A program made the position numbers and the translations under genes. The notes under the pieces were generated by a model, which saw only the letters and a program-made list of their open reading frames with translations, made no database searches and had not been told where the DNA came from. A stretch of 64,000 bases of DNA from Candidatus Nomurabacteria bacterium GW2011_GWC2_42_20 (GTDB lineage: Bacteria > Patescibacteriota > Minisyncoccia > Phycocordibacterales > UBA1550): positions 35,178 to 99,177 of the forward strand of contig LCDG01000002.1 of the NCBI GenBank assembly GCA_000998425.1, written 5' to 3'. Of this stretch, positions 2,718 to 61,183 are shown one piece after another. Position 1 is the first letter of the stretch; each line of letters starts with the position of its first letter.

Positions 2718-2725
2718 AGTTTTGT

Positions 2726-40984: not shown

Positions 40985-41782
40985 ATGGTTCACGCAAAGA
41001 AATCCCTAGGGCAGAATTTTTTGAATTCCAAAACTGTCGCGAAAGAAATTGTGCGAGCGGGTGAGCTTTCGTCTGTTGACACAGTACTCGAGATTGGGCC
41101 AGGGAAAGGATTTTTAACCTCAGAGCTCCTTGCATCAGGAGCGCATGTTATAGCGGTTGAAAAAGACGATCGCATGATTCCACTTCTGTCGGAAAAATTT
41201 GCAGATGAAATCAAAAATGGAAAGCTCACACTCCTCCATGGAGATATTCTTGAAAAAATTGAGGATGGCAAAATCGCACTGCCTCTGCGTTATAAACTTG
41301 TCGCAAACATCCCATACTATCTCACTGGGCAAATTATTCGTATGTTTCTTGAGGCGGAATTAAAGCCGGAGAGAATGATCCTCATGGTGCAAAAAGAGGT
41401 TGCGACTCGTATTGTCGCGCGAGATAAAAAAGAAAGCATCTTGTCGATTGCGGTAAAAGTGTACGGATCTCCTCACATCATAAAAAAGGTTCCTGCGCGC
41501 TATTTTACCCCGGCTCCAAAAGTAGATTCGGCGATTCTATCTATTGAAAATATTTCTGCAAAAAGTTTCCAGGGCCCAGTAAGCGAGAAATTATTCTTTG
41601 ATGTTGTTCGTGCTGGTTTTGCTCACAAGCGTAAAGTTCTTGCCGGAAACCTAAAGGACCTTTTTGGAGAAAAAATAATTTCAATTCTTGAAGAAGTATG
41701 TGTGCCTACAAATGCGCGCGCGGAAGATCTATCATTAAAAAACTGGCTCGATATCACATCGATGTACCAGCCTCAGAAATAG
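40985..41782 (+). CDS. rsmA: 16S rRNA (adenine1518/1519-N6)-dimethyltransferase RsmA/KsgA
   Basis: KKSLGQNFL start, LEIGPGKG SAM motif, NIPY motif. Confidence 0.9.
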   Translation: MVHAKKSLGQNFLNSKTVAKEIVRAGELSSVDTVLEIGPGKGFLTSELLASGAHVIAVEKDDRMIPLLSEKFADEIKNGKLTLLHGDILEKIEDGKIALPLRYKLVANIPYYLTGQIIRMFLEAELKPERMILMVQKEVATRIVARDKKESILSIAVKVYGSPHIIKKVPARYFTPAPKVDSAILSIENISAKSFQGPVSEKLFFDVVRAGFAHKRKVLAGNLKDLFGEKIISILEEVCVPTNARAEDLSLKNWLDITSMYQPQK

Positions 41783-42149
41783 TCCCAATAGGAGGAGCTG
41801 TTGTGAAATCTGGCAAACAACAAGGGGACCACCCGCAAGAGTACCACGACAAGCAGGACCCCCCTGGTGTGTACGAACCTAGAACCCATGGTCCTGGCCT
41901 AAAAAGTTGGTAGAAAGAATAAACCATCCCAGAGCCGTCATATGTAAAGACCCCTCCATTTGGAGCCCCCACAGTAATCGCAAGGTTGGCACTGCATGTG
42001 CAATATGTGACGTTTAAAATTTGCCCTCCGAATGGGATAATTGCCTTACCTGATTTTACCCTCATCACAAAAGAAGTGGCTATTAAAAAAAGCACGACAA
42101 TGAGGCTTGTCACAATATAGTGTTTTTTTGCGAGTAGAAAAAGTTTCAT
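41754..42149 (-). CDS. small secreted Cys-rich protein, hypothetical (distal gene of the minus-strand VirB2-like operon)
   Basis: N-terminal TM/signal segment, 8 Cys. Confidence 0.4.
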   Translation of the reverse strand: MKLFLLAKKHYIVTSLIVVLFLIATSFVMRVKSGKAIIPFGGQILNVTYCTCSANLAITVGAPNGGVFTYDGSGMVYSFYQLFRPGPWVLGSYTPGGSCLSWYSCGWSPCCLPDFTTAPPIGTISEAGTSM

Positions 42150-42199
42150 ATGCTTTATTGTTCCACACTAGTGTACGATCTGCAAACTACGAGCTGTAC

Positions 42200-43162
42200 T
42201 TATAATTCCAAATCAAAACTTTTCCCATTACTGACTCCATTTTCATTAACAATATGAACCCAAACTGGTAACGAAGCTTTTTTTGAATTTGCAGGTGTTG
42301 TTGTTGAAACAAGAAAACTTGACTGAGCTTTAAATAATAAAGTAGCGCCATCCACCGATGGTATATTTTCAAAAACACTTGTTCCTGTGCGTATCATATT
42401 TCCTTTTAGTGAAAAGCCGGACCCCTTGATAGTTATCGTTTCATTATTATTTGCTCTTGATGGACCCACGTTTTCTATTGTCGGTTCAGGTGTTACACCG
42501 TCAGTCACCACAAAGAAAGCATCCTTATTACTTTCTCCGCGCGCGTTTTTTACAAACAGTGAGTAGTTGCCTTTTGGTATTGCAGGAATCTTAAAACTAA
42601 TTGACTGTCCATTCCATGATTTTGCTTTTTCAACAGCATGTCCTTCGCCAAAATAAATCGTATTATCAGTTGAGGTAAAACCAGCGCCAGAAATCGTTAT
42701 AGTTGTCCCTGCCTTGCCCGAGTATTGGGATGGAAACATAACTACCACCTGACCCTTTGGTACAGCGGTGGAGCTTGATGCTGCGAAAGAAACAGAGGTG
42801 GCTGTATTTTTTAATGCAATTACTTTTGCGCGAGTACCTGAACCAAAAAACCCTGTTCCCACTGACAACCCTGCCGGCGTTAGCACCTCCGCACGGTATT
42901 TTTCTTGAAATTTTATAACTGCGCGCCTTGTCGCAGGACCAAAATAATCTGTCTCCTTTCCTATAGACCCTACACCAGATGTCGCAACAGTTGTGTCACT
43001 GTCTATATTGAGAAATTTTTGAAGCGCCCGCACATCTTCGCCTCGCGAACCAAGCGATAGCGTTCGTGTAAAATCTACAGTCGCAGAAAAAAGAAAGTTT
43101 GGTAATAACAGCAACCCAACGCAAAAAAATATTTTTATCTTCATCAGGAGCAATTGTACCAC
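42200..43162 (-). CDS. secreted protein with peptidoglycan-binding (PG_binding_1-like) domain and Ig/TIG-like repeats
   Basis: Signal peptide. SRGEDVRALQKFLN...YFGPATRRAVIKFQEKY. Confidence 0.55.
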   Translation of the reverse strand: MVQLLLMKIKIFFCVGLLLLPNFLFSATVDFTRTLSLGSRGEDVRALQKFLNIDSDTTVATSGVGSIGKETDYFGPATRRAVIKFQEKYRAEVLTPAGLSVGTGFFGSGTRAKVIALKNTATSVSFAASSSTAVPKGQVVVMFPSQYSGKAGTTITISGAGFTSTDNTIYFGEGHAVEKAKSWNGQSISFKIPAIPKGNYSLFVKNARGESNKDAFFVVTDGVTPEPTIENVGPSRANNNETITIKGSGFSLKGNMIRTGTSVFENIPSVDGATLLFKAQSSFLVSTTTPANSKKASLPVWVHIVNENGVSNGKSFDLEL

Positions 43163-43173
43163 GCAAATAATAA

Positions 43174-44784
43174 CTACTGTAAATTAACAATTCCATCCCC
43201 ATTAAAATCAAGTTGGGTCGCCAAATCATTAAATACTGCAAGGTCTGCAGCGCTCACAACCCCATCCCCATTGAAGTCTGAACCTCCGCAATTTTCAAAA
43301 GCTTTGTGACCGATGCAATAGTTTATAATCTGCTTGTCAGAATACCCAGTCGTGTCAAAAAATCTAGACTCAAACCAATCTAGCTTCCAACCAAAAGCAA
43401 GCCCTGGCCCACTAAAAAGGTCGTTCGCAAAAGCAAGATCACGATTGTCGATCGTACCATCCTCATTAAAATCTGCCTGCGCGCAGATCCCTGAGATTGG
43501 TGACGCTTTACACGAATTAAACACTGCCATATCTGCGCCTGCTGACCCAAAATCAGCTAGCCCGTCATCGTTTAGGTCATATTGCGCAATTGTTGCGTAT
43601 GTTATCTTGCCAAGAATGTTCTCAAAATACGGCTGCACCGGCGGCCCATCGTCGTATGCCTGCTGTCTGTTAAAAAATGTTTTTGAGAGCAGTGTGCGCA
43701 AGTCAACAACACTGCCATTTGATGCGCTCGTTACCCATGTTTTGAAATTACTATATTGTCCATCACTCCCTGCCTCACCAGGAGACACGCCATCTGCTCC
43801 CCAAACAAAACCAAAGGCCATATTTAAATAGCCATTATCTGCAGCACACACACTTCCAAGCACAGTTGACCTCAACCATGTTGCACCATTACATGCAACG
43901 GTTGGCATTAGCACTCTCCCTGCTGGCCCACCACACGGTGTCGTCTGAGCTGGGATGTCCTCCTGCTGTGTCTGTTGCGGATGAGGGAGCAAGCTACGGA
44001 CGTTTGCTGTTGATATTTTAAAGAAACAAGACTTTGCAGATTGTGGGGTGTCGTTTACAAGCTCTAATGTTGTGTTTTGGTTTACATTAAAAGTGTATCC
44101 TTTTGTCCTAAAAAGTCCTACGTCAGCGGTGTCTGTTTTCCCGTCACCATTTAAGTCGGTCTGCGCGCATAAATCGTATGTCGTGCTCATTATGCAGTGA
44201 GAAATAATCGAGTAGTCATTATTGCGATCAATCAACGCATTTATTTGATCCTGCGCTTGAGTGTTTGCTGCCACAATAGCAGCGTTGTTATCAATTGGCG
44301 CCGCTACACCGTAAACATCTGGCTGAACGAGTGGTGTTGTCGGTAGAGAAAGAGGAATATGTACACCACCACCTGCTGTAGTAGGCGCCGGCGACGTCCC
44401 TATTGGGGGTAAGCTAAAATTAAACTGCACCAGGCCTGGGTTGATAGAGTTTAAAATGAGATATGACGTCAAAACGAGAGTAAGCCCAATTAGGGCGTTC
44501 AAAATACGCTCCTTTGCGTCTTGTTTTGCGCTGGGAGCTATCCCTGCAACGACATATTGAGTACCTCCAATAATTGCGACAAGTATCGAGACTCCCGCAC
44601 CGAGAGCGATGAGAAGCTTGAGCATCCCACCTAGGTATGTGGAGAGGTTGGTTGTTTCTGAGCCAGTAGCTCCAGTAAATGTACCTGGGAGAGGTGCTAG
44701 TGGGGTGTAGTCTTGGGCGTGGGTAAACGAGGCAAACACAAAAAACGTTGCCATAAGAGAGATAAATATAACAATCTTTTTCAT
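43174..44784 (-). CDS. VirB2/TrbC-like pilin module fused to a large extracellular domain with dockerin-like Ca-binding repeats
   Basis: Signal peptide, then two hydrophobic helices separated by SAKQDAKER (GGMLKLLIALGAGVSILVAIIGGTQYVVAG...ILNALIGLTLVLTSYLIL). C-terminal D(L/F)N(G/D/E)DG...D repeats, four copies. Confidence 0.5.
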   Translation of the reverse strand: MKKIVIFISLMATFFVFASFTHAQDYTPLAPLPGTFTGATGSETTNLSTYLGGMLKLLIALGAGVSILVAIIGGTQYVVAGIAPSAKQDAKERILNALIGLTLVLTSYLILNSINPGLVQFNFSLPPIGTSPAPTTAGGGVHIPLSLPTTPLVQPDVYGVAAPIDNNAAIVAANTQAQDQINALIDRNNDYSIISHCIMSTTYDLCAQTDLNGDGKTDTADVGLFRTKGYTFNVNQNTTLELVNDTPQSAKSCFFKISTANVRSLLPHPQQTQQEDIPAQTTPCGGPAGRVLMPTVACNGATWLRSTVLGSVCAADNGYLNMAFGFVWGADGVSPGEAGSDGQYSNFKTWVTSASNGSVVDLRTLLSKTFFNRQQAYDDGPPVQPYFENILGKITYATIAQYDLNDDGLADFGSAGADMAVFNSCKASPISGICAQADFNEDGTIDNRDLAFANDLFSGPGLAFGWKLDWFESRFFDTTGYSDKQIINYCIGHKAFENCGGSDFNGDGVVSAADLAVFNDLATQLDFNGDGIVNLQ

Positions 44785-44880
44785 TCACTTTATAATACCA
44801 CAAACATATCCACAGGAGATGGAGTTTACTCTATATCTTATTAGTAGTCTCTGCTATAATATAATGGCGGAGAAATATAT

Positions 44881-45666
44881 ATGGACCAGCAATTTAAAAA
44901 AATATTTTCTGTCGCACTTGCGGTTATTGTTGGGGTTGGAATTATTTTCTTTGCGTTGAGGGGTATTGGTTTGCGCGACAATAAAGTTTCTTTCGAACCG
45001 ACGATAATAGATGGCAGTTGGAAGGACTCCTTGCTCACCATCCCATCATCAAAAGCACTGGATGTATTACAAAATAACCAGATTATTGAGGCCACAACAA
45101 CAGCTGACATTATTGCGCGCGAGCTAGTTGCAAACTATGCGCTTGTACAGCAAAGCAGGGCAACAACAACGCTGAGTGATACCGACGCGCAATCTATTGC
45201 TCAGATGCTAGTTGATAAAATAGACATACCAAAGGGTACTATTTATTCAGCAAATGATACCAGAACTTCGAACGACAATAGTAGCGCCGCAATCACAAAT
45301 TACATAAATAATGTTAGTGAAATAATGCAGAATTTTTCATTATCGCACAAAACGAATGAAGTAGTTATTTTCAAAGAGTCACTCGCATTAAAAGACGAAA
45401 CAAAACTTCAGGGTCTCGCGTCAATCGCTATAGAGTACAAAAACTTGCAAAAAAATCTTCTAGCAGTTTCAACCCCCTCCACAATGGCTTCTCTTCATCT
45501 CCGCCTTGTGCAGAGTTATTCAAACATAGAATCAGCAGTTACATCAATGCAAAAAATATTGACCGACCCAATACTTGGACTTGCCGCCTATACTCAATAC
45601 AAAAAAGAAAACGATGTACTTAGCGCGCTTGATACAGAATATCAAAGTTATGGCTCCCTGCGGTAG
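44881..45666 (+). CDS. membrane-anchored protein, hypothetical (T4SS-like cluster)
   Basis: N-terminal TM helix IFSVALAVIVGVGIIFFAL. Confidence 0.45.
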   Translation: MDQQFKKIFSVALAVIVGVGIIFFALRGIGLRDNKVSFEPTIIDGSWKDSLLTIPSSKALDVLQNNQIIEATTTADIIARELVANYALVQQSRATTTLSDTDAQSIAQMLVDKIDIPKGTIYSANDTRTSNDNSSAAITNYINNVSEIMQNFSLSHKTNEVVIFKESLALKDETKLQGLASIAIEYKNLQKNLLAVSTPSTMASLHLRLVQSYSNIESAVTSMQKILTDPILGLAAYTQYKKENDVLSALDTEYQSYGSLR

Positions 45667-45692
45667 CTTAAAATTCTAACAATAATTTTATT

Positions 45693-46559
45693 ATGAGACA
45701 TTCTTTCAATCTTCAAAAAAAACTACTCTTGCCTCTCTTTTCGGTGATATTTTTCTTTTCTGTTGGCACTCAGCGCGCCGATGCCCTTGTTTTTGTACCA
45801 GTTAACGACGCAGCACTAAACATAACAACTGATCTGCATGCTGGCTTCCAGGATGTAGCAAAAATGGGTCTAGACAGTGTTATGTACGCCGTAGGGCAAC
45901 AGCTGTTAACGCAGCTTACGGATAGTACAGTAAACTGGATCAAGAGTGGGTTCAATGGCAACCCGTTATATGCCATTGACCCAACAAAACTCTTCCTTGA
46001 CACAGCAAATGTTGTTTCAGGTGGGATGGCAAATCAAATCCGTGGCATAGCAACATGTAACTTCACCCCAAACTTCAACGCAAACCTTGCAAACAGAATA
46101 GAGTTATCAACACGAACTGGTGCAAACGCAAGGTTTAGCGACCAAATAACCTGCCCTTTCCCAACCAATGTAAACCCAACAGCTTTTTATAGCGACTTTA
46201 GTCAAGGGGGATGGAGTGCTTTTGAAGCATCGCTTTCTGACAGTGGCAACCCGTTTGGGGTTAACCTACTTGCTAGCCAAGAGCTTGCTCTTCGACAAGC
46301 TGAAGCACAAAGTCTAATGGACCAGAAACTAAACTGGGCGAATGGCTTTCTTTCTATGGAAGCTTGCTCCGGAACAGACCCTTACACCGGCATCCCCACA
46401 GACTGCAAAACCACAACACCTGGTAAGGTCATATCTGACACATTATCAAAAAGCATAGGCACTGATATGGACCGTATGGGCTTTGCTGACAATATGAACA
46501 AGGTCATTTCAGCGTTTGTCGCTAGCCTCACAAGTAGTGTGACTAGTGGTATATTTTAG
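45693..46559 (+). CDS. secreted protein, hypothetical (T4SS-like cluster)
   Basis: Signal peptide LLLPLFSVIFFFSVGTQRADA. Confidence 0.45.
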   Translation: MRHSFNLQKKLLLPLFSVIFFFSVGTQRADALVFVPVNDAALNITTDLHAGFQDVAKMGLDSVMYAVGQQLLTQLTDSTVNWIKSGFNGNPLYAIDPTKLFLDTANVVSGGMANQIRGIATCNFTPNFNANLANRIELSTRTGANARFSDQITCPFPTNVNPTAFYSDFSQGGWSAFEASLSDSGNPFGVNLLASQELALRQAEAQSLMDQKLNWANGFLSMEACSGTDPYTGIPTDCKTTTPGKVISDTLSKSIGTDMDRMGFADNMNKVISAFVASLTSSVTSGIF

Positions 46560-46570
46560 ATAAGAACTAA

Positions 46571-48718
46571 ATGCCTAGATCTCTACCAAAAATTATTGCA
46601 GCGATTCTTCTCGGGTTTGTTTTTCTGCTTGGTGGAGCAGAAGTGGCGTCGGCGCAGGCTCCTGTTTCTCCTGCCCTCGTAACACAGGATGCGATACTAG
46701 AAGGACTTAAATGTGGCGTTAATAACCCAATTACAAACCACAAACTCACAGATTGTGTACCTGTTTTTACTTATTATATACTATACATCCCAGCATCTTG
46801 GATGCTAGTTGGTGGTGCTTATGTTTTTGACGCTATGCTTATGTTGAGCATAGACAGCAAATTTGTTCAGCAGGATTTCATAGACACATCGTGGAAAGTT
46901 GTAAGGGATTTTTCTAATATGGCGTTCATTTTTGTGCTCTTGTACACAGGCATATCAACAATGCTCGGCACACCAGGGTGGGCAAAGACGGTTCGCAATG
47001 TCATAATAATAGCGCTTCTTATAAACTTCAGTCTTTTCTTTACCAAAGTAATAATTGACGCAGGGAATATTCTCGCTGTTGGCATATACGAAGCGATTGG
47101 CCAACCAAAGACAGCGAATGATGCTCATGTCGTTGCTGGGAAAAGTAGTTTAGACGAGAGGGATATTTCATTCAGGCTAGCTGAGAAGTTCCATCCACAG
47201 TCATTCATACGTACTACTGGTGAAATCCCTGCAATGGAGGCAACTGTTGTTTTTATTATAGCTGCCATTGTAAGTGTTTTCGCGGGATATATATTTTTTA
47301 AGGCTGCGCTTTTGTTTATCGGGCGCCTCCTTGCCTTTTGGTTTCTGATGATCATTTCTCCTTTTGCTTTCATTTCAATAACTTTTCCAAAGGGTAACAA
47401 GTTTCAAGGATGGCTAGATGCTCTCGTATCACAGGCGTTTGTGGCACCAGTATTCCTTTTTCTTGTCTACCTGATTATGCAGGTCATAAACTCAGGGGTT
47501 CTTAATGACCTAATAAATGATCCTGACTCAGCAAACACAGCAGGCTTCACTTTTGACAAGGTTCTTATGCCTGTAATTGTAGCAACGCTCATAATAATGG
47601 CGCTTAAATTCGCGTTGGAATTCTCAGAGAAAATGGCTGGGGATTTTGGTAAACTTGGAGCATCAATGGCTGGAGCAGTAATTGGTGTTGCTGGAGGGCT
47701 TGCTCTCGGGGGAACAGCTATCGCTGGGCGCGCAATTGGTGGCAAGCTTGCAGCTAAAGCATTTGAGGGTGGCACCATGCAGAAATGGGCAGCTTCTGAG
47801 AAAACTGGGCTTCTTGGCGCAGCACAACGCAACCTTGGAATGAGGGGCACAATGGCGCTCGATACAGCACGCAGCGCAAGCTGGGATGCTCGTAATGTTG
47901 GGCTAGTATCAAAAGGCATCAAATCAACAGGAGTTGATGTCGGTAAGGCTGGTGGCAAGGGCGGGTACGTACAAGGGCAAAAAGATTGGTTAAAAGAGCA
48001 AAAGAAAAAAGCAACATTGATGGAGCTTACGTCTGACGAAAAGGAGGCAATTAAAAAAGAGGCTCAAGCAAAGGTAGAAGCTGCTGGTGAAAAAACAGTG
48101 GGGGCAAAATTACTGGTAGCTGACGCCAAGGAAAAACATGATAATTCCGATGGTGCGCGCCTTGTTGCCACTCGAACAAAGCAATTGGAGGATGAGAGGA
48201 ATAAGCTGGAGGAGGCAAAAAAGAGCACGATGGCTGCTCAGGTAGCGTTTGATACAGCTAAAAACTCAGGGCGTCTTGATCCTTCACTCAAAGCTGCTAG
48301 GGATGCAGCAGAAAAAGCAGAGGAAGAAACTATGAACAGATTAAAGGAGACAGAGTCTGACCTTGCGAAGGCTACTGCAGACCATGCAAACTCAGCAACA
48401 GCCTCTGCCTTAAAAACGGTTACCGATTCTTTAACAGCAGCGCAACAAGATGAAGCAAAGGCTATTGACGCACTAAAAAATGTGGGCAATAAAATAAAAG
48501 AGGAGGACGAACGTAGACGTGGCGCTTACGGCGAACAAGTAACAACCGTACATGAGCCATTATCAATGGTATCAAAAACTGCTGAAGCTCGACGTAAAAA
48601 ATTAGTTGAGTCAATTCGCGCTGAAAAATCTGACGAAGATAAGAAAAAAGAAGAAAAGGCAAAGCTTCTAAAAGAGCTTGCCGAGGAAGTGAAAAAGAGC
48701 GGGGAGAGCGACCACTAA
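46571..48718 (+). CDS. VirB6/TrbL-like polytopic membrane protein with Gly-rich linker and long C-terminal coiled-coil
   Basis: Signal/TM start, at least 6 predicted TM helices in the first ~380 aa, then a hydrophilic K/E/A-rich tail. Confidence 0.5.
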   Translation: MPRSLPKIIAAILLGFVFLLGGAEVASAQAPVSPALVTQDAILEGLKCGVNNPITNHKLTDCVPVFTYYILYIPASWMLVGGAYVFDAMLMLSIDSKFVQQDFIDTSWKVVRDFSNMAFIFVLLYTGISTMLGTPGWAKTVRNVIIIALLINFSLFFTKVIIDAGNILAVGIYEAIGQPKTANDAHVVAGKSSLDERDISFRLAEKFHPQSFIRTTGEIPAMEATVVFIIAAIVSVFAGYIFFKAALLFIGRLLAFWFLMIISPFAFISITFPKGNKFQGWLDALVSQAFVAPVFLFLVYLIMQVINSGVLNDLINDPDSANTAGFTFDKVLMPVIVATLIIMALKFALEFSEKMAGDFGKLGASMAGAVIGVAGGLALGGTAIAGRAIGGKLAAKAFEGGTMQKWAASEKTGLLGAAQRNLGMRGTMALDTARSASWDARNVGLVSKGIKSTGVDVGKAGGKGGYVQGQKDWLKEQKKKATLMELTSDEKEAIKKEAQAKVEAAGEKTVGAKLLVADAKEKHDNSDGARLVATRTKQLEDERNKLEEAKKSTMAAQVAFDTAKNSGRLDPSLKAARDAAEKAEEETMNRLKETESDLAKATADHANSATASALKTVTDSLTAAQQDEAKAIDALKNVGNKIKEEDERRRGAYGEQVTTVHEPLSMVSKTAEARRKKLVESIRAEKSDEDKKKEEKAKLLKELAEEVKKSGESDH

Positions 48719-48726
48719 TATAAAAT

Positions 48727-49413
48727 ATGGACAACGAAACAACGCAAATTTTTATGGAACAACTAGGTAAACTACCGAGCACGGTTGTCGATTTCATTTC
48801 ATCTTCAAGTTGGGATGCTGATCTAGACGAAATAGGGTCTATGTATAACCTGCATGAGGAAGATCTTGTTAAGTTTAAACAGGAAGTAACTCTTGTACTT
48901 GCTGGACTAATACACCCAGATGAGTTTCGTGGCACACTAGAGCAAGAGGTTGGTTTACAAGGAGCTGTACTCGACGCGATAGTCAGTGCTACAGAAGAAA
49001 AAATCTTTGCGCAGGTTCGCCCCGCACTCATGGAGTTTTTTGAACAGGAGTCAAGCCAGTATGAAAGTCAAACGGAAGAATTACAAACTGCCCAGCCTGC
49101 ACAAGAAATCCCAAGAGCCCCGCAACGAGTATGGGAAAAAGAGCCTGATATCGTCCCAGACAACCTACCAACCGATGAAGAACCGGAGTCATTCCTCCCA
49201 CCAATTCCTCCAAAGGCACCAAAGGCGGAAGCCGATATTCCAAGCTGGGACATCACACCAGCACACCCATTTGAAGAAAAAATGAAAAAGGTATTTACCG
49301 CAGGGCAACAGTCTATGGGGGATCTAACGATAGAGCCTGCCACACCACAGGTCGCACCACCAGACACTACGCGCACATACCACGCAGACCCATACAGAGA
49401 GCCGATAGAGTAG
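48727..49413 (+). CDS. acidic Pro-rich protein, hypothetical
   Basis: 228 aa, pI acidic, PxxP-rich C-terminus. Confidence 0.4.
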   Translation: MDNETTQIFMEQLGKLPSTVVDFISSSSWDADLDEIGSMYNLHEEDLVKFKQEVTLVLAGLIHPDEFRGTLEQEVGLQGAVLDAIVSATEEKIFAQVRPALMEFFEQESSQYESQTEELQTAQPAQEIPRAPQRVWEKEPDIVPDNLPTDEEPESFLPPIPPKAPKAEADIPSWDITPAHPFEEKMKKVFTAGQQSMGDLTIEPATPQVAPPDTTRTYHADPYREPIE

Positions 49414-49586
49414 AATGTGGAATATGGAATTTTGAATATTGAATAGTGGGCACGGATTCCTGTATTAATTTTGGTGTTCATATTCCGCACAATACGGTAT
49501 AATATTTAGGTGGATAAAGAATATTTATTTAGATTATTCCAAAATTCATGAATTAGCAAATTCACGCCTGGCGCTATTCTACCCTT

Positions 49587-50042
49587 ATGCAATTTCATAT
49601 TCCTCAATACATCGACATAGAAGATAAGCTCTTTGGCCCACTCACACTCAAACAGGCTGTCTATGTCGCTGGCGGTCTCGGTGGGGCGTATCTTGTTTAC
49701 CGTATTATTCCATATACGGTGATAAAGGGTCCAATTATTTTGGGTATCGCGGGACTCACGTGGGCTCTGGCTTTTTACCCAAAAGAAAAGCTTGGTAAAC
49801 CTTTTATCGAGATCCTTGAAGCAGCTTTCAACTACATGGTGCGTGACAAACTTTACACCTGGAAAAAGACCACAAAAGAAGCCACCGCTGGGAAAGAAGA
49901 GGATTTCATTAAGTCGCAGTCTTTTTCCACGCCAACTGTTCCAACAGGAAAACTGTCTAGCACCTCATTCAACCTTGATGTGCGCGGAAAAGAAGAACCC
50001 GAAGAAAAAGTATTGGGAGGAGATGATACAATATTCAAATAA
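49587..50042 (+). CDS. VirB3/PrgI-like two-helix membrane protein
   Basis: MQFHIPQYIDIEDKLFGPLTLKQAVYVAGGLGGAYLV...IILGIAGLTWALAF. Sits immediately upstream of the VirB4-like ORFs. Confidence 0.5.
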   Translation: MQFHIPQYIDIEDKLFGPLTLKQAVYVAGGLGGAYLVYRIIPYTVIKGPIILGIAGLTWALAFYPKEKLGKPFIEILEAAFNYMVRDKLYTWKKTTKEATAGKEEDFIKSQSFSTPTVPTGKLSSTSFNLDVRGKEEPEEKVLGGDDTIFK

Positions 50043-50047
50043 TTAAT

Positions 50048-50704
50048 ATGGCAGTCAAATCAAAAGCAGCACAAGATTTTGTTCCAATCAAGGAAATTCG
50101 CGACGGTGTCGTGATTTTAAAAGACGGAACCATCCGTATGCTTCTCATGGCATCGTCGGTCAACCTAGCGCTTAAATCAGCAGACGAGCAACAGGCTGTT
50201 TTAATGCAATTTCAAAGTTTTCTAAACTCTCTTGAATTTTCAACACAAATTTTCATCCAATCACGCAGGCTAGACATTCGTCCATATATCATTCTGCTTG
50301 AGGAGCGTCTCAAGGAAGAGGTGAACGAGCTTCTAAAAATTCAGATTCGCGAATACATGGGCTTTGTGCAGACCATCGCGCAGTCGACAAACATTATGAG
50401 CAAACTTTTCATTATTGTTGTCCCTTATGCGCCGCCGAAATCTGTCACAAGTAGCTCTCCATCAAGTAGTGGCTTTACAGGACTCTTTGGTAAAAAAGGT
50501 CCTGTAAACACTAAGCCGTCCCAAAGCGCAATTGAAGCCTTCGAGGAAGCTCGAACACAGCTTGAGCAAAGGGCTGGTGTCATTAGTCACGGGCTTGCGC
50601 GTACTGGGGTACGCATAGTCCCGCTTGGCACTGAGGAGCTAACAGAACTCTATTACCGCCTTTTTAATCCAGGGGAGTCAGAGAAGAACGCAAACATTGG
50701 ATAG
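50048..50704 (+). CDS. VirB4-like N-terminal domain encoded as a separate ORF
   Basis: ...DFVPIKEIRDGVVILKDGTIRMLLMASSVNLALKS... resembles the N-terminus of Gram-positive VirB4/TraE/TcpF ATPases. Stops 17 nt before the ATPase ORF, which is in a different frame. Confidence 0.5.
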   Translation: MAVKSKAAQDFVPIKEIRDGVVILKDGTIRMLLMASSVNLALKSADEQQAVLMQFQSFLNSLEFSTQIFIQSRRLDIRPYIILLEERLKEEVNELLKIQIREYMGFVQTIAQSTNIMSKLFIIVVPYAPPKSVTSSSPSSSGFTGLFGKKGPVNTKPSQSAIEAFEEARTQLEQRAGVISHGLARTGVRIVPLGTEELTELYYRLFNPGESEKNANIG

Positions 50705-50720
50705 CTTTTAGCACACTATT

Positions 50721-52556
50721 ATGATCAATTTTTTTGGAAAAACACAAGCCACACAAACTGACACGAGTAAAAACTCCGTGCCAGTACTACCGCAAGATCT
50801 TTACGCGGATGCAGGTCTAAACCTAGCAGATATTATCGCACCATCTGCTGTAAAAGTAGAATCGAAACAGCTAATTTTGGGTGAAAAATTTGTGCGCTCA
50901 TTTTTCATTACCTCATACCCTAGTGTTGTTTCTGACAACTGGCTTTCTCCTCTCATAAATCTAGATAAAGTTTTTGATATTGCAATATATATTCACCCAG
51001 TCGACACTGCGGCGATTATGAAAAAATTTGAGAAGAAGGTTGCTGAAGTACAAAGCCAGATCAATGTGCGCGAAAGTAAGGGTTTTGTGCGCGACCCAAT
51101 GCTCGAGTCAGCATATCGTGACCTCGAGGAGCTCCGCGACCGCCTCCAGCAGGCACAGGAAAAAATGTTTGATGTTGGCCTTTATTTATCACTCTACGCC
51201 GATACAGAAGAAGGGCTTGGTCATGCAGAAGCGGAAATCAAATCGATGCTCGAGTCGCGTCTCATCTATGTGCGCCCAGCTCTATTCCAGCAAGAAGAAG
51301 CTTTCCAAAGTATTATCCCCGTGAACGAAGACAAAATCGTGGTTACAAAAAAAATCAACTCTGAACCACTTTCGAGCTTCTTCCCATTTGTGTCCTTCGA
51401 CCTTACCTCAGACAAGGGTATTCTGTATGGGATAAATCGCCACAATTCTTCTCTTGTCCTTTTTGACCGTTTCTCTCTAGAGAATTACAATTCGGTTACT
51501 TTCGCAAAATCCGGCTCTGGAAAATCTTTTGCCACCAAGCTAGAAATATTAAGGAGTCTGATGTTTGATGTTGATGTTATTGTTATTGACCCTGAGCGCG
51601 AATATGAATCTATGGCAGAGGCGGTGGGCGGGCGATATTTTAATATTTCTCTCAATTCCAAGCACCACATAAATCCATTTGACCTTCCTGTCCCACGTGA
51701 GGACGAGTCGCCAGCAGACGTCCTCCGAGCTAATATAATTTCCCTTGTTGGGCTTTTTCGCCTCATGCTATCTGGGCTTACCCCAGAGGAAGATTCTATT
51801 GTAGACCGCGCGATCGCTGAGACATACGCGCTCAAAGATATTACCCCTGACTCCGACTTTTCTGCAATCGAACCACCACTGCTCTCAGACTTTGAAATGG
51901 TCCTCTCTGGGATGGAAGGCGCGGAGTCAATCCTAACAAAACTCACAAAATACACTCGTGGCTCGTGGGCAGGGTTTATCAACCAGCCGTCAAACGTTGA
52001 CATAAACCGAAAATTTATCGTTTTTTCAGTGCGTGATATGGAGGACGACCTGAAGCCAGTTGCAATGTATCTAGTTACGCACTTTATTTGGAATGCTGTT
52101 CGTCGCACTCTCCGCAAACGACTTCTCGTAGTAGATGAAGCGTGGTGGATGATGAAGTCTGACGATACTGCCGCATTTCTATACGCTCTTGCAAAGAGAG
52201 GCCGCAAATACTACCTCGGTATTTCTACAATCACCCAAGATGTAACAGACTTCCTAAAATCCCCATATGGTCTGCCTATTATGACCAACTCTTCCATCCA
52301 AATACTTTTAAAACAATCTCCTACATCTATTGACGCGGTCCAAAAAGCATTCAATCTAACGGACGAAGAAAAATTCCTCCTTCTGGAGTCTGGTGTTGGG
52401 GAAGGGATCTTTTTCGCAGGAATGAAACATGTTGCTATCCGAACAATAGCATCCTACACAGAGGAGCAGATTATTACGTCGGACCCGTCACAAATTCTCG
52501 CTATTAAAAAGGCAAAGCGTGAACTTGCTGAAGCAGAGGCAAAAACAGGTCTATAG
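50721..52556 (+). CDS. VirB4/TrbE-like type IV secretion ATPase (C-terminal ATPase domain)
   Basis: Walker A FAKSGSGKSF, Walker B LLVVDEAWWMM, C-terminal ...GISTITQDVTDF. Confidence 0.8.
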   Translation: MINFFGKTQATQTDTSKNSVPVLPQDLYADAGLNLADIIAPSAVKVESKQLILGEKFVRSFFITSYPSVVSDNWLSPLINLDKVFDIAIYIHPVDTAAIMKKFEKKVAEVQSQINVRESKGFVRDPMLESAYRDLEELRDRLQQAQEKMFDVGLYLSLYADTEEGLGHAEAEIKSMLESRLIYVRPALFQQEEAFQSIIPVNEDKIVVTKKINSEPLSSFFPFVSFDLTSDKGILYGINRHNSSLVLFDRFSLENYNSVTFAKSGSGKSFATKLEILRSLMFDVDVIVIDPEREYESMAEAVGGRYFNISLNSKHHINPFDLPVPREDESPADVLRANIISLVGLFRLMLSGLTPEEDSIVDRAIAETYALKDITPDSDFSAIEPPLLSDFEMVLSGMEGAESILTKLTKYTRGSWAGFINQPSNVDINRKFIVFSVRDMEDDLKPVAMYLVTHFIWNAVRRTLRKRLLVVDEAWWMMKSDDTAAFLYALAKRGRKYYLGISTITQDVTDFLKSPYGLPIMTNSSIQILLKQSPTSIDAVQKAFNLTDEEKFLLLESGVGEGIFFAGMKHVAIRTIASYTEEQIITSDPSQILAIKKAKRELAEAEAKTGL

Positions 52557-52573
52557 ATACTTGTGTAGATTAT

Positions 52574-53749
52574 TTGATGTGCAAATTTGTTGGACTTCCA
52601 GCTGGTGTTCGCGGTATACTAAGTCATATGTATTCAATGCGTAGTGTTGCACTAAGCGCTCTTTTAGGTGGTTTTATTTTTACGCCGTTATTTGCCTTTG
52701 CTCAAACATCCACAACAACAGCAGAGCAGCCTGTGAGCCAGCTTCAACAACAGATAGACCAGCTTATTCGTGATCGCATGAATTCCATGCCAACGACAGA
52801 GGAGATTCGCGCAAGCTCTATTCGTAATTACCTAGAGGTAAAAACGATTCCAGAAACCCCTGGGCCATCAGAAATGGTGCGCGTTTCTATCGAGAGCTAC
52901 CTCACCGACCTTAACAAGGCCACAATAAGCTGGTCTCTCAACGGGAAGGTTGTTGATCGTGGAGTTGGTAGAAAATCATTTTCTTTTCAGAACGGTCCTT
53001 CCGGTAAAACCACCCGCTTAACCATCTCGATTACAACAAATGCTGGTGAATATATAACGAAGGAATTTTCTTGGAATCCTGTCGGCCTCACAATTCTTTG
53101 GGAAGCAGACACATACACGCCTCCTTTTTATAAAGGAAAGGCTCTACTGACCGCACAAGCAAACGTAAAAGCTGTTGCAATCCCTGACAATACCGATGGG
53201 CAAAACGCTCTAAGTGCTGGAAATTTTGTATATGTTTGGGAAAAGGATGGTGTGGTGGTATCCGAATCTTCTGGCTATGGAAAAAACTTTTTTTCATTTA
53301 CAGCACCAAAACCTTACGGGGACGCGAAAGTAAAAGTTAAAGCTTCTTCAGTAAACAACTCAATAAACTCCGAGACTCGAGTTAATCTTTCCCTTTCCCA
53401 GCCAGTTATTTTATTCTATGAAAAAAACCCCCTATTAGGTGTTTTGTACAATCAACCATTTGGCACAGAAACAACATTGAATAAAAAGGAATTTACTGTC
53501 GTTGCGGAGCCATATTTCTTTTCAAGAGAAGCGAGTGAGACGCCAGCTTTCAAATATGACTGGGCTGTCAACAACAAAGCAACTCAGAGTTACGGTCGAT
53601 CAATAACACTTAGAAATGACACTGGTGTAAAAGGAGAGTCTGCCATTTCTCTATCAATGCGTGGACTTAAACAAACCTTTCAAAATGCGAGCAAAGAACT
53701 TAGGGTTCAATTTACTGGCGGAGAGACCTCAGACCGTCCGATATTTTAA
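52574..53749 (+). CDS. secreted beta-rich protein, hypothetical (T4SS-like cluster)
   Basis: Signal peptide ...FTPLFAFAQTST. Confidence 0.45.
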   Translation: MMCKFVGLPAGVRGILSHMYSMRSVALSALLGGFIFTPLFAFAQTSTTTAEQPVSQLQQQIDQLIRDRMNSMPTTEEIRASSIRNYLEVKTIPETPGPSEMVRVSIESYLTDLNKATISWSLNGKVVDRGVGRKSFSFQNGPSGKTTRLTISITTNAGEYITKEFSWNPVGLTILWEADTYTPPFYKGKALLTAQANVKAVAIPDNTDGQNALSAGNFVYVWEKDGVVVSESSGYGKNFFSFTAPKPYGDAKVKVKASSVNNSINSETRVNLSLSQPVILFYEKNPLLGVLYNQPFGTETTLNKKEFTVVAEPYFFSREASETPAFKYDWAVNNKATQSYGRSITLRNDTGVKGESAISLSMRGLKQTFQNASKELRVQFTGGETSDRPIF

Positions 53750-53755
53750 ACTACC

Positions 53756-54601
53756 ATGAAATACGTATTATCAATTTTTATTGGAATCATCTTTACAACT
53801 CTCTTTGGAGTATTTGTCGCCCACGCCCAAAACTACACCCCACTGGCGCCACTCCCACTTGGTGAAGGCGGTACACCACTTACTACTTACACAATTAGCT
53901 CATACCTCGGTGGGATGCTCAAGCTACTCATCGCTCTCGGTGCGGGAGTCTCGATACTTGTTGCTATCATTGGTGGCACTCAATACGTTGCTGCGGGTAT
54001 AGCTCCTAGCGCAAAACAGGACGCAAAGGAGCGTATTTTGAACGCACTAATTGGGCTTACTCTCGTTTTGACGTCATATCTCATTTTAAACTCTATCAAC
54101 CCAGGCCTGGTGCAGTTTAATTTTAGCTTACCTCCAATAGGGACAAGTCCGATGGCTACGACGACGCCCATAGTAGCAGAACCATGGCCAGACGATGCCT
54201 CAGAGCGCGCGCAGCTTGCAAGTAAAAATATTATGGTCACGGGAACAAAGACATCTACAACTTGCAAAACAATATGGGAAAAAGGGTGCACAAGTGTTTA
54301 TCAATTAGGGTCAGGTGCGATAAGTGGTCTTTTATCCCTAAAAGATTCGTGTTTGAGTTGTGCTATTGTTGTTACAGGTGGTACTGAATATTGGAGCCAT
54401 AGCGTGAACACAGCACATAGGCCAGGAAACTCGGTGGTTGACATTGATAATGGCAGTTCCGCACTTAACCAAAAAATTAGGTCCGGGACATCTCTAGGTG
54501 TTCAGTCCTCATGCAGTAGTCTTGGTGTTGCATATCGGCTTACTGGTCCAGGAGCGGGTCTATATGTGGACGAGGGAAACCACTGGCATGTTTGTTACTA
54601 A
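53756..54601 (+). CDS. VirB2/TrbC-like pilin module fused to a Cys-containing C-terminal domain (paralog of 43174..44784)
   Basis: aa 49-132 are identical to the other copy. The underlying DNA is about 93% identical in inverted orientation. Confidence 0.5.
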   Translation: MKYVLSIFIGIIFTTLFGVFVAHAQNYTPLAPLPLGEGGTPLTTYTISSYLGGMLKLLIALGAGVSILVAIIGGTQYVAAGIAPSAKQDAKERILNALIGLTLVLTSYLILNSINPGLVQFNFSLPPIGTSPMATTTPIVAEPWPDDASERAQLASKNIMVTGTKTSTTCKTIWEKGCTSVYQLGSGAISGLLSLKDSCLSCAIVVTGGTEYWSHSVNTAHRPGNSVVDIDNGSSALNQKIRSGTSLGVQSSCSSLGVAYRLTGPGAGLYVDEGNHWHVCY

Positions 54602-54610
54602 AATACAATT

Positions 54611-55930
54611 ATGAACCGAAAAACACTTATTATCATAATCTCACTTATCATCCTTGTTAGTATTGGAGGATATTTCTTTTTGTCTAAAAAAGCTCCTGTG
54701 GCCACACCGATAGATGGCACTTTCCCTGGGGGTGGTGGTTCATTTACTGGAACAGGCAGTATGGGTGGCGACGATACTCTATCAGGCGGTGATGCATTCA
54801 TCCCAGGGTCAAGCATGCCTCTCCCACGCCTTTATGAGCTACATAAGGTTCCAGTAGCTGGTATAGGATTTATAGAGGAAGGAAAGAGCCCAAACAACAC
54901 TATTGTTGCCCGCTATATTGAGCGCGGACTTGGGCATATATACGAGACTCAGCTTGCCACACTTGTTGAATCTCGTATTGTAAACGAAACTCGTCCACGT
55001 ATTATGGAAGCATTGTGGGGTAATGGTGGTAAAAGTGTTGTTGTTAGATTTATTGACGACAAAGATGGTTTCTCAGTTGTAAAAACAAATATCGTTAACG
55101 TTGGAGGGATTACCACATCATTTGCTCGTAGCACATCAACAGAAATGATATCTGATTTTATAACGACAGAAGAGACAAGCCTCCCCGACCATATCCCATT
55201 CATGGCGACGGTTGAGGATGGTGGAAATAAAATTTTTTATCTCGAGAACGGAGTTAATGCTTCTACTGGGGCCCTAGCGACATTTAATGATTTTAGTGTT
55301 TCGACAATATTTAGTTCCTCTTTTACAGAGTGGCTTCCTCAGTTCCCAAACCAAAACCTTATTACACTAACCACAAGACCTTCAGCAAAAGTAGCCGGAC
55401 ATCTTTTCTTTATAAGCCCAAAGAATAAATCGGTTACAAAAATTCTTGGCGGAATAAATGGCCTCACCACACTCACTAGTCGTGACGGGAAACATGTCCT
55501 CTTTGCGGAGACGATGGGGGATGCGCCAGAACTCTCTGTGTATGATGTCGCAAACAAGAACACCAATCATTTCCTACTACACACACTTCCTGAAAAATGT
55601 GTGTGGGGTTCCAAAAATTCAACTATGGCATACTGCGCTATCCCTCAAAGCATCCCCGTAGCGACATACCCTGACCAGTGGTACCAAGGTCTTGTAGCAT
55701 TTTCAGATGCTTTGTGGAGTATAGACACAGAGACAGGTGATGTTGCAAAGATTATGACTCCTGGCGACTATAGAGCCGCTAATCTTGATATGATTAACCT
55801 AGCTCTTTCGTCAGACGATTCACATCTCGTATTTATGAATAAAACATCTGGGACACCATGGGTGTATCGTATTGCGGAAATATCTACACCCACGACAGAT
55901 ATATCAACAACAACTGTTTCTGGTATGTAG
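54611..55930 (+). CDS. membrane-anchored extracytoplasmic protein, hypothetical
   Basis: N-terminal TM helix LIIIISLIILVSIGGYFFL. Gly-rich linker. Confidence 0.45.
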   Translation: MNRKTLIIIISLIILVSIGGYFFLSKKAPVATPIDGTFPGGGGSFTGTGSMGGDDTLSGGDAFIPGSSMPLPRLYELHKVPVAGIGFIEEGKSPNNTIVARYIERGLGHIYETQLATLVESRIVNETRPRIMEALWGNGGKSVVVRFIDDKDGFSVVKTNIVNVGGITTSFARSTSTEMISDFITTEETSLPDHIPFMATVEDGGNKIFYLENGVNASTGALATFNDFSVSTIFSSSFTEWLPQFPNQNLITLTTRPSAKVAGHLFFISPKNKSVTKILGGINGLTTLTSRDGKHVLFAETMGDAPELSVYDVANKNTNHFLLHTLPEKCVWGSKNSTMAYCAIPQSIPVATYPDQWYQGLVAFSDALWSIDTETGDVAKIMTPGDYRAANLDMINLALSSDDSHLVFMNKTSGTPWVYRIAEISTPTTDISTTTVSGM

Positions 55931-55990: not shown

Positions 55991-56147
55991 TTAGCGACGT
56001 AGAGCGAGCGAAGTGAGAATGTACTCATTCACACTTCCGAGCCGAGGAGTTAATATAGGTAAATACCGCGTGGTATCTGCCACGCTTTTGCACGAGCGAA
56101 ACGAGTCCAAACATTACCCTGCGGTCTTTGCCGCAGGGACCTATATT
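55986..56147 (+). repeat. intergenic repeat element, copy B
   Basis: ttttattagcgacgtagagcgagcg...ttccgagccgagg...aatataggt...ccgcgtggtatctgccacgcttttgcacgagc...ctgcggtctttgccgcagggacctatatt. Confidence 0.6.
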
Positions 56148-56157: not shown

Positions 56158-56886
56158 TTAGTCTTTGATCTCCTCTGCTTTTCTCTTTACATAAAGCTCG
56201 TGTCCAATTGAAAATAGATTGCTTGTTGTCCAATATAGAGCCACTGCTGCTGAAATAGAGTAGGAGATACCGAAAACTATCACAGGCAACATATATCGCA
56301 TCTGTACATTAAAACTCCTTGCAAAATCATCTTTAAACGACGGTTTTGCCCCTTTTTCAGCTGGCGCCATTGGGGGAATAGAAAGCTTAATCTGATAATA
56401 CTGAGTGATTGCCGCAAGCAGTGCGAGGATTATGCTTTTTTTAGAGAGAACAATTCCCAAGAACATCATGCTGACGACTGAAGGCACATGAACGAATGAG
56501 TATAGGTGTTCTGGGTTGAGGTTTGGTAGACCTTTGAAAAATACAAAGTAAAGCGCAAAAATAACTGGAAGTTGTATTAAAACAAGAAGACACCCAGAAA
56601 ATGGATTTATCCCGTGCTCCTTGTAGAGCTCCATTGTTTTGCGAGCCTGCTCTTGCTTGTTGTCCTTATGTTTTTCTTTTAGTTTCTCGAGATGTGGCGC
56701 AAGAGATCGCATTTTTGCTTGCGACACAACAGACTTATGAGACAAAGGAAGAAGCACTGATCGCACAACAACAGTAAGTATAATAATGGCAACCCCAACG
56801 TTTGCCCCTGGAACAGCTGCAAGTATTAAAACAAGTGTATTATATAGGGGCTTATAAAAAACCGTCGAAAAAAATCCTGATTCCAT
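56158..56886 (-). CDS. yidC: membrane protein insertase YidC (short form)
   Basis: Five TM helices, YidC/Oxa1 core. Follows yidD, rnpA and rpmH. Confidence 0.85.
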   Translation of the reverse strand: MESGFFSTVFYKPLYNTLVLILAAVPGANVGVAIIILTVVVRSVLLPLSHKSVVSQAKMRSLAPHLEKLKEKHKDNKQEQARKTMELYKEHGINPFSGCLLVLIQLPVIFALYFVFFKGLPNLNPEHLYSFVHVPSVVSMMFLGIVLSKKSIILALLAAITQYYQIKLSIPPMAPAEKGAKPSFKDDFARSFNVQMRYMLPVIVFGISYSISAAVALYWTTSNLFSIGHELYVKRKAEEIKD

Positions 56887-57188: not shown

Positions 57189-57560
57189 CTATTTAATTAA
57201 CTTCGCCAACCTAAACGCTTTTTCTACTTCTCGGCTTAACTCCTCAAAAGTTGCTTTGTGCGCATCAATCTTGGGATAAACAACAATTGTTGTTGGTGTA
57301 AGTAATTTTTTAAAGTTTTGATCTAACAATTCATAAAACCTACGTCTTAGCCTGTTTCTTACAACAGCAGTTTTGGCTGTTTTTTTTGAGACTACTACCG
57401 ACGCACGACTTTCTAAGCCACATCGTTCGCATCCTGATGGTATTCCTTTGTTGCTGGGCTTGTAGAAAACCGCTGAAAAAAACGGTGAAAAGGTCCTAAA
57501 CCCCTGCATCTTATGTGTAGGGAAGTCCTTTCTTAGGATGCGGTTCTTGCTAGGAAGCAT
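57189..57560 (-). CDS. rnpA: ribonuclease P protein component
   Basis: 123 aa, basic. ...VVSKKTAKTAVVRNRLRRR... motif. Position between rpmH and yidD. Confidence 0.8.
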   Translation of the reverse strand: MLPSKNRILRKDFPTHKMQGFRTFSPFFSAVFYKPSNKGIPSGCERCGLESRASVVVSKKTAKTAVVRNRLRRRFYELLDQNFKKLLTPTTIVVYPKIDAHKATFEELSREVEKAFRLAKLIK

Positions 57561-57966: not shown

Positions 57967-58047
57967 CTGAATTCACCAACTCTTCCACTGTTGCACCTTT
58001 TTATATTTGCCTGACTCAGAATATAATAGAGTGACTGAAACAACCCT

Positions 58048-59406: not shown

Positions 59407-59636
59407 AGGTGTGGATAAAGTGTTAGTAAGTAAAAAAATTTATGTTAATAATTACTAATAAATCTATTATAAAAAATTATGAATAAATCTTATAAACAGT
59501 TTTGTAAAACTTATCCACAAAATATTAATATACTTATCTTTAGTAAAGACTTATTAATTAATGATATTATTAAGTTATCCACATATCCACATATACAATA
59601 TTAATAATAAGTATTTATATATTAATAATAAACAAC
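59407..59636. promoter_or_regulatory. oriC: AT-rich dnaA-dnaN spacer with four DnaA boxes
   Basis: Boxes at 59410-59418 (reverse), 59512-59520, 59576-59584 and 59585-59592. Very AT-rich unwinding region. Confidence 0.75.
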
Positions 59637-60737: not shown

Positions 60738-60739
60738 AA

Positions 60740-60994
60740 ATGCTTAAATTAAACCAACTACTTGAGCGATTCAAGAATCTTACGAATAACGAAAAGGTAA
60801 GAAAACAGCTAATTGTTGAGGTTTTAGTAAATAATGAAATACCAATAAACATAAACCAGATATCAATATCAAAAAATACTATATTTATTAAAACAAAACC
60901 TATTATAAAAACAGAAGTTTTATTAAAAAAAGAAAAAATACTTAAACAGATAAAAGAAATCGGTTGTTTGTCTTTTATTTCAAATATTCAATAA
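60740..60994 (+). CDS. hypothetical small protein downstream of dnaN
   Basis: 84 aa, K/I-rich. Confidence 0.35.
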   Translation: MLKLNQLLERFKNLTNNEKVRKQLIVEVLVNNEIPININQISISKNTIFIKTKPIIKTEVLLKKEKILKQIKEIGCLSFISNIQ

Positions 60995-61180: not shown

Positions 61181-61183
61181 CTA

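Follow-up and report, generated by a model that had tools for sequence, protein, structure and literature searches.

Type IV secretion systems (T4SSs) are widespread in the Patescibacteria, which are ultra-small and depend on hosts, and where a survey of 3,035 genomes found the ATPase VirB4 in 2,417 and placed it in a clade nested in the class MPF_FATA (Quinonero-Coronel et al. 2025, PMC12102498). The commonest companion of VirB4 in these genomes is TrsD, and PrgI/VirB3, VirB6 and VirB2-like pilins detected with the Pfam family PF18895 also accompany it, while relaxases occur in only 103 of the 3,035 genomes and coupling-protein genes, which are common in the phylum, usually lie far from virB4 (PMC12102498). 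According to the same survey, the virB4 neighbourhood of Paceibacteria includes dnaA, dnaN, rnpA, ksgA and rpmH. In Southlakia epibionticum, an orthologous cluster is essential for epibiotic growth, as determined by transposon sequencing (Wang et al. 2023, PMC10633639), whereas a distant coupling-protein homologue of this species is non-essential (PMC12102498). A 2025 review regards the Patescibacteria systems as an established newcomer to the T4SS superfamily and describes VirB6 of R388 as a pilus platform (PMC12857230). Here we analyse a T4SS gene cluster of Candidatus Nomurabacteria bacterium GW2011_GWC2_42_20, which occupies positions 41754-55930 of a 64,000-nucleotide stretch of contig LCDG01000002.1 (the window). 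This locus is a typical copy of the known origin-proximal, relaxase-less T4SS of Patescibacteria. It probably represents a chromosomal system that descended from the conjugation machinery of monoderm MPF_FATA elements and does not conjugate, but serves as a channel for contact with a host and bears a surface structure made of pilins.

With the Patescibacteria clade the locus shares VirB4, a separate TrsD, PrgI, VirB6 and PF18895-type VirB2-like pilins, the lack of a relaxase or coupling protein nearby, the dnaA/dnaN/rnpA/ksgA neighbourhood and a monoderm host. A preliminary description of this DNA, which was made from the sequence without database searches, had considered the architecture to be under-described. 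This claim of novelty does not hold, since the architecture was published for 2,417 genomes in 2025, along with the lack of a relaxase and coupling protein, the VirB2-like pilins and the location beside dnaA; the description restates published conclusions, because composition, absences and context had already been reported between 2023 and 2025. What our analysis adds are the pilin-domain fusions, two inverted pilin modules identical in 82 of 83 residues and a set of accessory proteins, which are the only components that remain unnamed.

The order PrgI-TrsD-VirB4 is identical in the Southlakia cluster (SEML1_0006-0019, PMC10633639), but the two loci differ around it. Southlakia has six short tandem pilins (103-185 amino acids, aa), a pair of very large VirB6-like proteins and an NTF2-like protein, and its virB4 is followed by genes for lysozyme-like and M15B/M23 hydrolases. 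Loci of the kind studied here, in contrast, usually carry one pilin fused to a C-terminal domain, to which an extra inverted copy is added in our window, and the genes after virB4 encode putative Ig-like and propeller-like proteins instead of recognisable hydrolases; an NTF2-like protein was not found at the locus. The MPF_FATA systems (CTn2 CD1110, pCF10 Prg, pGO1 Trs and the mycoplasma integrative and conjugative element, ICE) resemble our locus in a VirB4 that scores above the CD1110 cut-off, in the PrgI and TrsD homologues, in a polytopic protein with weak matches to mycoplasma ICE proteins and in the lack of outer-membrane core components. They differ from it in that our locus lacks a relaxase, a coupling protein and a PrgB-type adhesin, that neither a PrgL/VirB8-like protein nor a PrgK/VirB1-like hydrolase was identified in it, and that it has VirB2-like pilins, which monoderm systems normally lack. 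Differences from the MPF_T class (R388 Trw, Agrobacterium VirB) comprise the absence of a VirB7/VirB9/VirB10 core, of VirB11 and of VirD4, a secreted upstream protein that shows no detectable similarity to TrwJ/VirB5, and a VirB6 with a charged tail of 275 aa.

Relatives of VirB4 were collected by scanning one genome per species, and 587 of 600 candidate stretches encode one; each protein of the cluster was then searched by tblastn in the 80 best of the related loci to establish gene order. These loci are 71-99% identical and all belong to Patescibacteria or to unclassified metagenome-assembled genomes (MAGs), with relatives from Candidatus Yonathbacteria and Paceibacterota at 89-94% and one Minisyncoccia MAG at 99% identity. 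In this comparison the genome was assigned to Candidatus Yonathbacteria/Paceibacteria. The comparison with related genomes that had been proposed for this cluster reveals an order conserved across dozens of species, which reads, with protein lengths for the unnamed members and brackets around the less conserved 261- and 228-aa proteins, ksgA - (261) - 288 - VirB6 - (228) - PrgI - TrsD - VirB4 - 391 - pilin(s) - 439 - yidC - rnpA - dnaA - dnaN; the dnaA/dnaN/rnpA/ksgA context is common to the relatives. A pilin is found in 60-63 of the 80 loci, and the counts for the other proteins are given in Table 1. Non-synonymous (dN) and synonymous (dS) substitutions were estimated from the three closest long loci, for which dS is saturated. 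VirB4 has a dN of 0.04-0.06, compared with 0.075-0.13 for DnaA, 0.11-0.24 for DnaN and 0.056-0.13 for YidC, and by this measure evolves more slowly than DnaA. The envelope proteins, with a dN of 0.32-0.72, change 5-15 times faster, and dN/dS is well below 1 in every gene with a computable ratio. Because of the conserved order and this dN pattern, we consider the core to be a machine under strong purifying selection with fast-evolving exposed parts, and not a decaying mobile element.

The 611-aa open reading frame (ORF) had been proposed to encode a VirB4-family ATPase with Walker A and B motifs, and this identification is firmly backed by profile searches. It matches the NCBIfam profile conju_CD1110 with an E-value of 6e-111 and 372 bits (cut-off 325) over profile positions 181-733 of 752, and Pfam P-loop_TraG (1e-24) and CagE_TrbE_VirB (1.4e-4) as well; Walker A (AKSGSGKS) lies at residues 262-269 and Walker B (LLVVDE) at residues 468-473. 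Since the CD1110 match starts at position 181, about 180 N-terminal profile positions are uncovered in VirB4. Judging from profile matches, this missing part is supplied by the upstream 218-aa TrsD-like ORF, which hits NCBIfam TrsD (3.7e-7) and two VirB4 profiles, CD1110 (at positions 2-76) and VirB4_plasma (at positions 101-219), in all cases below the curated cut-offs. A separate TrsD-like ORF of about 210-220 aa stands beside virB4 in every one of the 80 loci. The PrgI/VirB3-like identity of the 151-aa protein is likewise borne out (Pfam PrgI, 4.9e-7, 30.6 bits against a cut-off of 27), but its gene is not directly upstream of virB4, as had been stated; this slight misplacement arose because the TrsD-like ORF between the two was overlooked. 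PrgI was found in 75 of the 80 loci, invariably upstream of TrsD-VirB4.

The assignment of the 715-aa polytopic protein to VirB6 holds at the level of the fold, while profile searches leave the protein unnamed. It contains seven hydrophobic segments and a tail of 275 aa, 54% of which are K, E, A, D or R, and because of this charged C-terminal tail we refer to it as an extended VirB6 in the sense of PMC12857230. A fold search ranked DotA first and TrwI/VirB6 second, and hhalign aligned the profile of its family with TrwI of R388 (E 3e-5, probability 73%), in agreement with the VirB6/TrbL-like protein with a long tail that had been suggested before. NCBIfam gave sub-threshold matches to two transmembrane conjugal proteins of mycoplasma ICEs. 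Pfam TrbL matched only one of 22 homologues and not the protein itself, a PDB profile search returned coiled-coil noise only, tblastn against plasmids found no matches, and no precomputed Pfam domains were present among the 120 listed database homologues.

Two VirB2/TrbC-like pilin modules had been recognised in the cluster, and both can be upheld. Against the Pfam family T4SS_pilin (PF18895, cut-off 26.6 bits), pilin A scores 27.5 bits and pilin B, just below the cut-off, 26.3 bits; 56 of 56 aligned pilin B homologues match the family, which was also the only Pfam family detected in them. The AlphaFold2 model of pilin B (mean per-residue confidence, pLDDT, 85.3) comprises a signal helix, a hairpin of helices 47-79 and 84-114, a low-confidence Pro-rich linker and a confident (above 90) alpha/beta C-terminal domain. 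Fusions of this kind are the rule: the 65 pilin ORFs of the related loci have a median length of 355 aa, and 60 of them are longer than 200 aa.

The C-terminal domain of pilin B (54161-54598) belongs to a Cys/His-rich family with 525 cluster representatives, and nearly all of the 150 representatives listed are longer proteins that end in this domain. R, four Cys, W, H, D, H and H are invariant throughout the family, and the H/D/H/H set together with the four Cys suggests that the domain binds metal. The pattern H-x7-D ... H-x-H resembles that of LAS (M15/M23) peptidases, and in one homologous pilin a VanY domain takes the place of this domain. A LAS identity is nevertheless a motif-level guess, because no statistical or fold test supported it: two PDB profile searches for LAS/M15 were negative, hhalign of the domain against the pilin-VanY fusion gave a probability below 1%, neither Pfam nor the PDB gave a match to the domain, and searches by fold and by sequence did not help to identify it.

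Pilin A ends in a different region, which matches Dockerin_1 (1.5e-5), contains dockerin/EF-hand-like calcium loops with three D-x-N-x-D-G motifs and has no homologue in the 80 related loci. This gene is an additional copy, specific to the lineage, that sits between ksgA and the operon; the close relatives L005 and L003 lack it there. The slot itself is variable: three minus-strand genes fill it here (41783-44880), two in L005 (2057-3457) and a single unrelated 586-aa plus-strand ORF in L003 (1392-3152). The modules of pilins A and B are identical in 82 of 83 aa (dN 0.019, dS 0.31), and the sequence on both sides of them is diverged or unrelated. At the DNA level they form a 262-nt inverted repeat which flanks the T4SS core, and recombination between its arms would invert 9.3 kb.

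One tentative idea, which we hold to be possible and somewhat doubtful, is that the VirB2-like pilin of this Paceibacteria lineage is a modular carrier and not just a subunit of a fibre; its conserved two-helix module would be recognised by VirB4/VirB6 and present interchangeable C-terminal payloads on the cell surface or pilus. The payloads may include the widespread Cys/His-rich putative metallo-hydrolase domain, dockerin-like calcium-binding modules and the VanY peptidase. If this were true, near-identical modules with unrelated payloads, arranged as inverted repeats, would give the payloads room to diversify and perhaps let the core invert.

By analogy with the structures of R388 and Dot/Icm and with monoderm systems, the machine could work as follows. 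Hexamers of VirB4/TrsD, in which TrsD would supply the N-terminal domain of VirB4 and PrgI would anchor and dock the ATPase, may energise a platform or channel that VirB6 forms in the single membrane. The modules of the pilins would be extracted from the membrane and stacked on the VirB6 platform to build a short pilus or a conduit through the wall, with the variable C-terminal domains exposed at the surface, while the putative Ig-like, propeller-like and peptidoglycan-binding proteins might scaffold the passage through the wall. The cell would use this machine in contact with a host cell, for protein export or for the import of host molecules, and not for DNA conjugation.

A system that is not for conjugation and probably has a role in host interaction, as proposed in the preliminary description, matches the inference published for these systems (PMC10633639, PMC12102498, PMC12857230), and an inference it still is. 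Several points weigh against the host-contact channel. The role of the system has been called 'completely unknown' even in Saccharibacteria (PMC11665869), and the function in this Paceibacterium is deduced from sequence; the pilus is a prediction from the genes, and pilins that carry C-terminal domains of 150-400 aa may be unable to polymerise in the way VirB2 does. Matches to TrsD and to mycoplasma ICEs stay below curated cut-offs, neither a VirB8-like nor a clear VirB1-like component could be identified at the locus, and the gene for a coupling protein may lie in another part of the genome, an arrangement that is common in Patescibacteria (PMC12102498).

Among the alternatives, a machine for DNA or nucleotide uptake, in which a ComB- or Ced-like T4SS imports host nucleic acid for a nucleotide-auxotrophic organism, survives best, although we regard it as improbable. 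A PNAS perspective raises this possibility for Saccharibacteria, in which competence is dispensable and the T4SS essential (PMC11665869), the absence of a relaxase and coupling protein is shared with ComB systems, and our VirB4 weakly matches the archaeal DNA-import ATPases CedB (1.4e-8) and CedD. These matches reach only 34 and 15 bits, however, against 372 bits for CD1110, and no ComEC-like or DNA-binding component is present in the cluster. Uptake differs from the favoured host-contact channel solely in which cargo moves and in which direction, and sequence cannot decide this. We prefer a host-contact conduit over conjugation, but export and import cannot be separated.

That the locus belongs to a functional conjugation system, with the coupling protein, the relaxase and oriT at other places in the genome, appears very unlikely to us. 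VirB4 does belong to a conjugative family, that of CD1110 of CTn2, and VirD4-like genes are common in Patescibacteria and usually far from virB4 (PMC12102498), while 64 kb were examined here. Within the window, to which all our family absences refer, no ORF of at least 110 aa matches a coupling protein (VirD4/TcpA), VirB11 or a relaxase, the family of which would be needed to recognise an oriT, in line with the earlier observation that none is visible. The rarity of relaxases in the phylum and the dispensability of the Southlakia coupling-protein homologue, in contrast to the essential T4SS, argue against conjugation, as do the fixed, origin-proximal core position, which is syntenic across species and not that of a mobile element, a GC content of 0.42-0.45 that equals that of the flanks, and the lack of an integrase adjacent to the cluster.

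That the locus is merely what is left of a decaying integrated conjugative element, and has no function today, is highly improbable. The missing relaxase and coupling protein and several ORFs without a recognisable family would fit such a remnant, but all ORFs are intact and tightly packed, their order is kept in dozens of species, VirB4 is more conserved than DnaA, computable dN/dS ratios are well below 1 and the orthologous system is essential in Southlakia; synteny and selection effectively refute this explanation. Hardly credible at all is that VirB4 is a stray gene and the flanking ORFs make a type IV, Tad or competence pilus. The window does hold a type IV pilus locus, which encodes PilB, PilC and a prepilin, but that locus (334-6467) is 35 kb away. 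Within 41754-55930 neither a T2SSE ATPase nor a T2SSF protein was found, and there is no prepilin peptidase or N_methyl pilin either. The family assignments, with PF18895/VirB2-like pilins and PrgI, TrsD and VirB6 as neighbours of VirB4, refute this reading; flanking genes of Tad or competence pili were an outcome that the preliminary description had named as refuting its own proposal.

The distant type IV pilus locus lies on the minus strand and encodes a PilB-like T2SSE protein (4719-6467), a PilC-like T2SSF protein (3276-4496), an N_methyl prepilin (2726-3259) and four small unnamed ORFs (334-2717), which may be minor pilins.

All ORFs that had been placed in the cluster are present in the ORF map at the coordinates given for them, and each family proposed for its diverged components is borne out by profile or fold evidence. 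The map shows 14 intact, tightly packed ORFs. Eleven of them, on the plus strand (44881-55930), are read as one operon with spacings of 5-26 nt, the sole exception being 173 nt ahead of the PrgI gene, and diverge from a minus-strand unit of three ORFs (41754-44784). A promoter-like consensus match lies at the divergent intergenic region (44768-44796, plus strand), with a regional count that does not exceed that of shuffled sequences. Likewise, the hairpin behind the operon is only suggestive, because terminator-like sites are no commoner in the region than in shuffles. With uvrD and ksgA upstream and yidC, rnpA, dnaA and dnaN downstream, the cluster adjoins the replication origin.

Table 1. 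Features of the T4SS cluster and its flanks in the window, with the number of related loci (best 80) that contain a match
Feature	Position	Strand	Basis or remark	Loci with match (of 80)
uvrD			upstream flank, with ksgA; housekeeping	
ksgA	40985-41782		upstream flank	
Cys-rich small membrane-anchored protein, 131 aa	41754-42149	-	N-terminal hydrophobic segment, 6 Cys; variable slot	3
Secreted PG_binding_1 + IPT/TIG (Ig-like) protein, 320 aa	42200-43162	-	Pfam 4.4e-8, TIG 4.7e-15	9
Pilin A, 536 aa	43174-44784	-	signal peptide, T4SS_pilin (VirB2-like) two-helix module, 400-aa C-terminal region	
Inverted repeat, left arm (pilin A module)	44378-44639		262 nt, 91%	
Divergent intergenic region, 96 nt	44785-44880		between minus-strand accessory unit and plus-strand T4SS operon; ORF map	
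Bitopic membrane protein, 261 aa, unnamed	44881-45666	+	one N-terminal transmembrane segment; fast-evolving	20
Secreted protein, 288 aa, unnamed	45693-46559	+	directly upstream of VirB6	44
Extended VirB6-like polytopic protein, 715 aa	46571-48718	+	hydrophobic segments, fold search, hhalign	60
Acidic soluble protein, 228 aa, unnamed	48727-49413	+	no transmembrane segment, net charge -29	29
PrgI/VirB3-like membrane protein, 151 aa	49587-50042	+	Pfam PrgI	75
TrsD-like protein, 218 aa	50048-50704	+	stand-alone homologue of VirB4 N-terminal domain	80
VirB4 ATPase, 611 aa, MPF_FATA (CD1110) type	50721-52556	+	profile matches, Walker motifs	80
Secreted/anchored beta-rich protein, 391 aa	52574-53749	+	directly downstream of virB4	78
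Pilin B, 281 aa	53756-54601	+	signal peptide, VirB2-like helical hairpin, Pro-rich linker, 146-aa C-terminal domain	
Inverted repeat, right arm (pilin B module)	53901-54162		262 nt, 91%	
Membrane-anchored protein, 439 aa	54611-55930	+	one N-terminal transmembrane segment	64
GC-rich hairpin, 9 pairs, 7 G-C	56117-56138		between convergent 439-aa-protein gene and yidC; terminator-like on both strands	
yidC	56158-56886		downstream flank	
rnpA	57189-57560		downstream flank	
dnaA	58048-59406		downstream flank	
dnaN	59637-60737		downstream flank	

The remaining cluster genes encode accessory proteins, among which the 288-, 391- and 439-aa proteins form a strongly conserved but unnamed envelope trio. 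The 391-aa protein is the most conserved unnamed component of the locus. It probably consists of tandem Ig-like domains, to which weak evidence points in the form of Pfam matches in its homologues (Ig_3 in 5, BiPBP_C in 5 and PKD in 3 of 26) and a PDB profile hit to the Ig-like protein Hoc (E 0.013). Similarly weak evidence points to a probable TolB-like beta-propeller in the 439-aa protein (PDB profile search, TolB, E 0.005; PD40 in one of 25 homologues). The 288-aa protein corresponds to the N-terminal domain of proteins of 500-1100 aa that occupy the same position in distant Paceibacteria (L008, L074, L079 and others). The idea that it is a VirB5 found no backing, as ten long homologues have no Pfam domain and the protein itself matched neither a PDB profile nor, by hhalign, TrwJ/VirB5 of R388.

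No Pfam, NCBIfam or PDB-profile match was obtained for the 261-aa protein, for which the PDB profile search left a VirB8 identity unsupported, no Pfam or NCBIfam match for the 131-aa protein, and no family match in Pfam, NCBIfam or PHROGs for the 228-aa protein; PHROGs gave no matches for any of the ten cluster proteins searched. The 320-aa protein confirms the peptidoglycan-binding-domain protein noted earlier, with PG_binding_1 and IPT/TIG domains and no catalytic domain detected by Pfam. At least six further secreted or membrane-anchored proteins had also been counted in the cluster, of which five stand (131, 261, 288, 391 and 439 aa), whereas the sixth, of 228 aa, is acidic and soluble.

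The wider window holds some further features. A wall hydrolase with LysM and Peptidase_M23 domains is encoded about 6 kb upstream of the cluster (34283-35554, minus strand), with uvrD and ksgA in between; hydrolases of the LysM/M23 type were listed as possible VirB1 substitutes in the Patescibacteria survey (PMC12102498). A 985-aa protein (35658-38615, plus strand) is very acidic and coiled-coil-rich, and its hydrophobic segments are grouped at the centre; Pfam gave no match, and none of the 80 related loci encodes a homologue of it less than 10 kb from virB4. A tyrosine recombinase (25018-26016, minus strand; Phage_integrase and SAM-like N-domain), probably XerC/D-like, is encoded 16 kb from the cluster, with no recognisable mobile element beside it. 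GC content falls to 35% over the dnaA and 29% over the dnaN coding sequences (58000-61200), compared with 42% in the window, and as this trough recurs in ten related genomes, it is a feature of the lineage and not an assembly artefact. An Rfam scan of the window found four tRNAs only, all far from the cluster.

The T4SS of Patescibacteria is near-universal in a phylum that holds a large share of bacterial diversity, and is essential in the one species tested. The locus described here offers a clean example from the Paceibacteria, and its fold-level VirB6, its envelope trio and its pilin fusions could guide experiments on how these bacteria tap their hosts.

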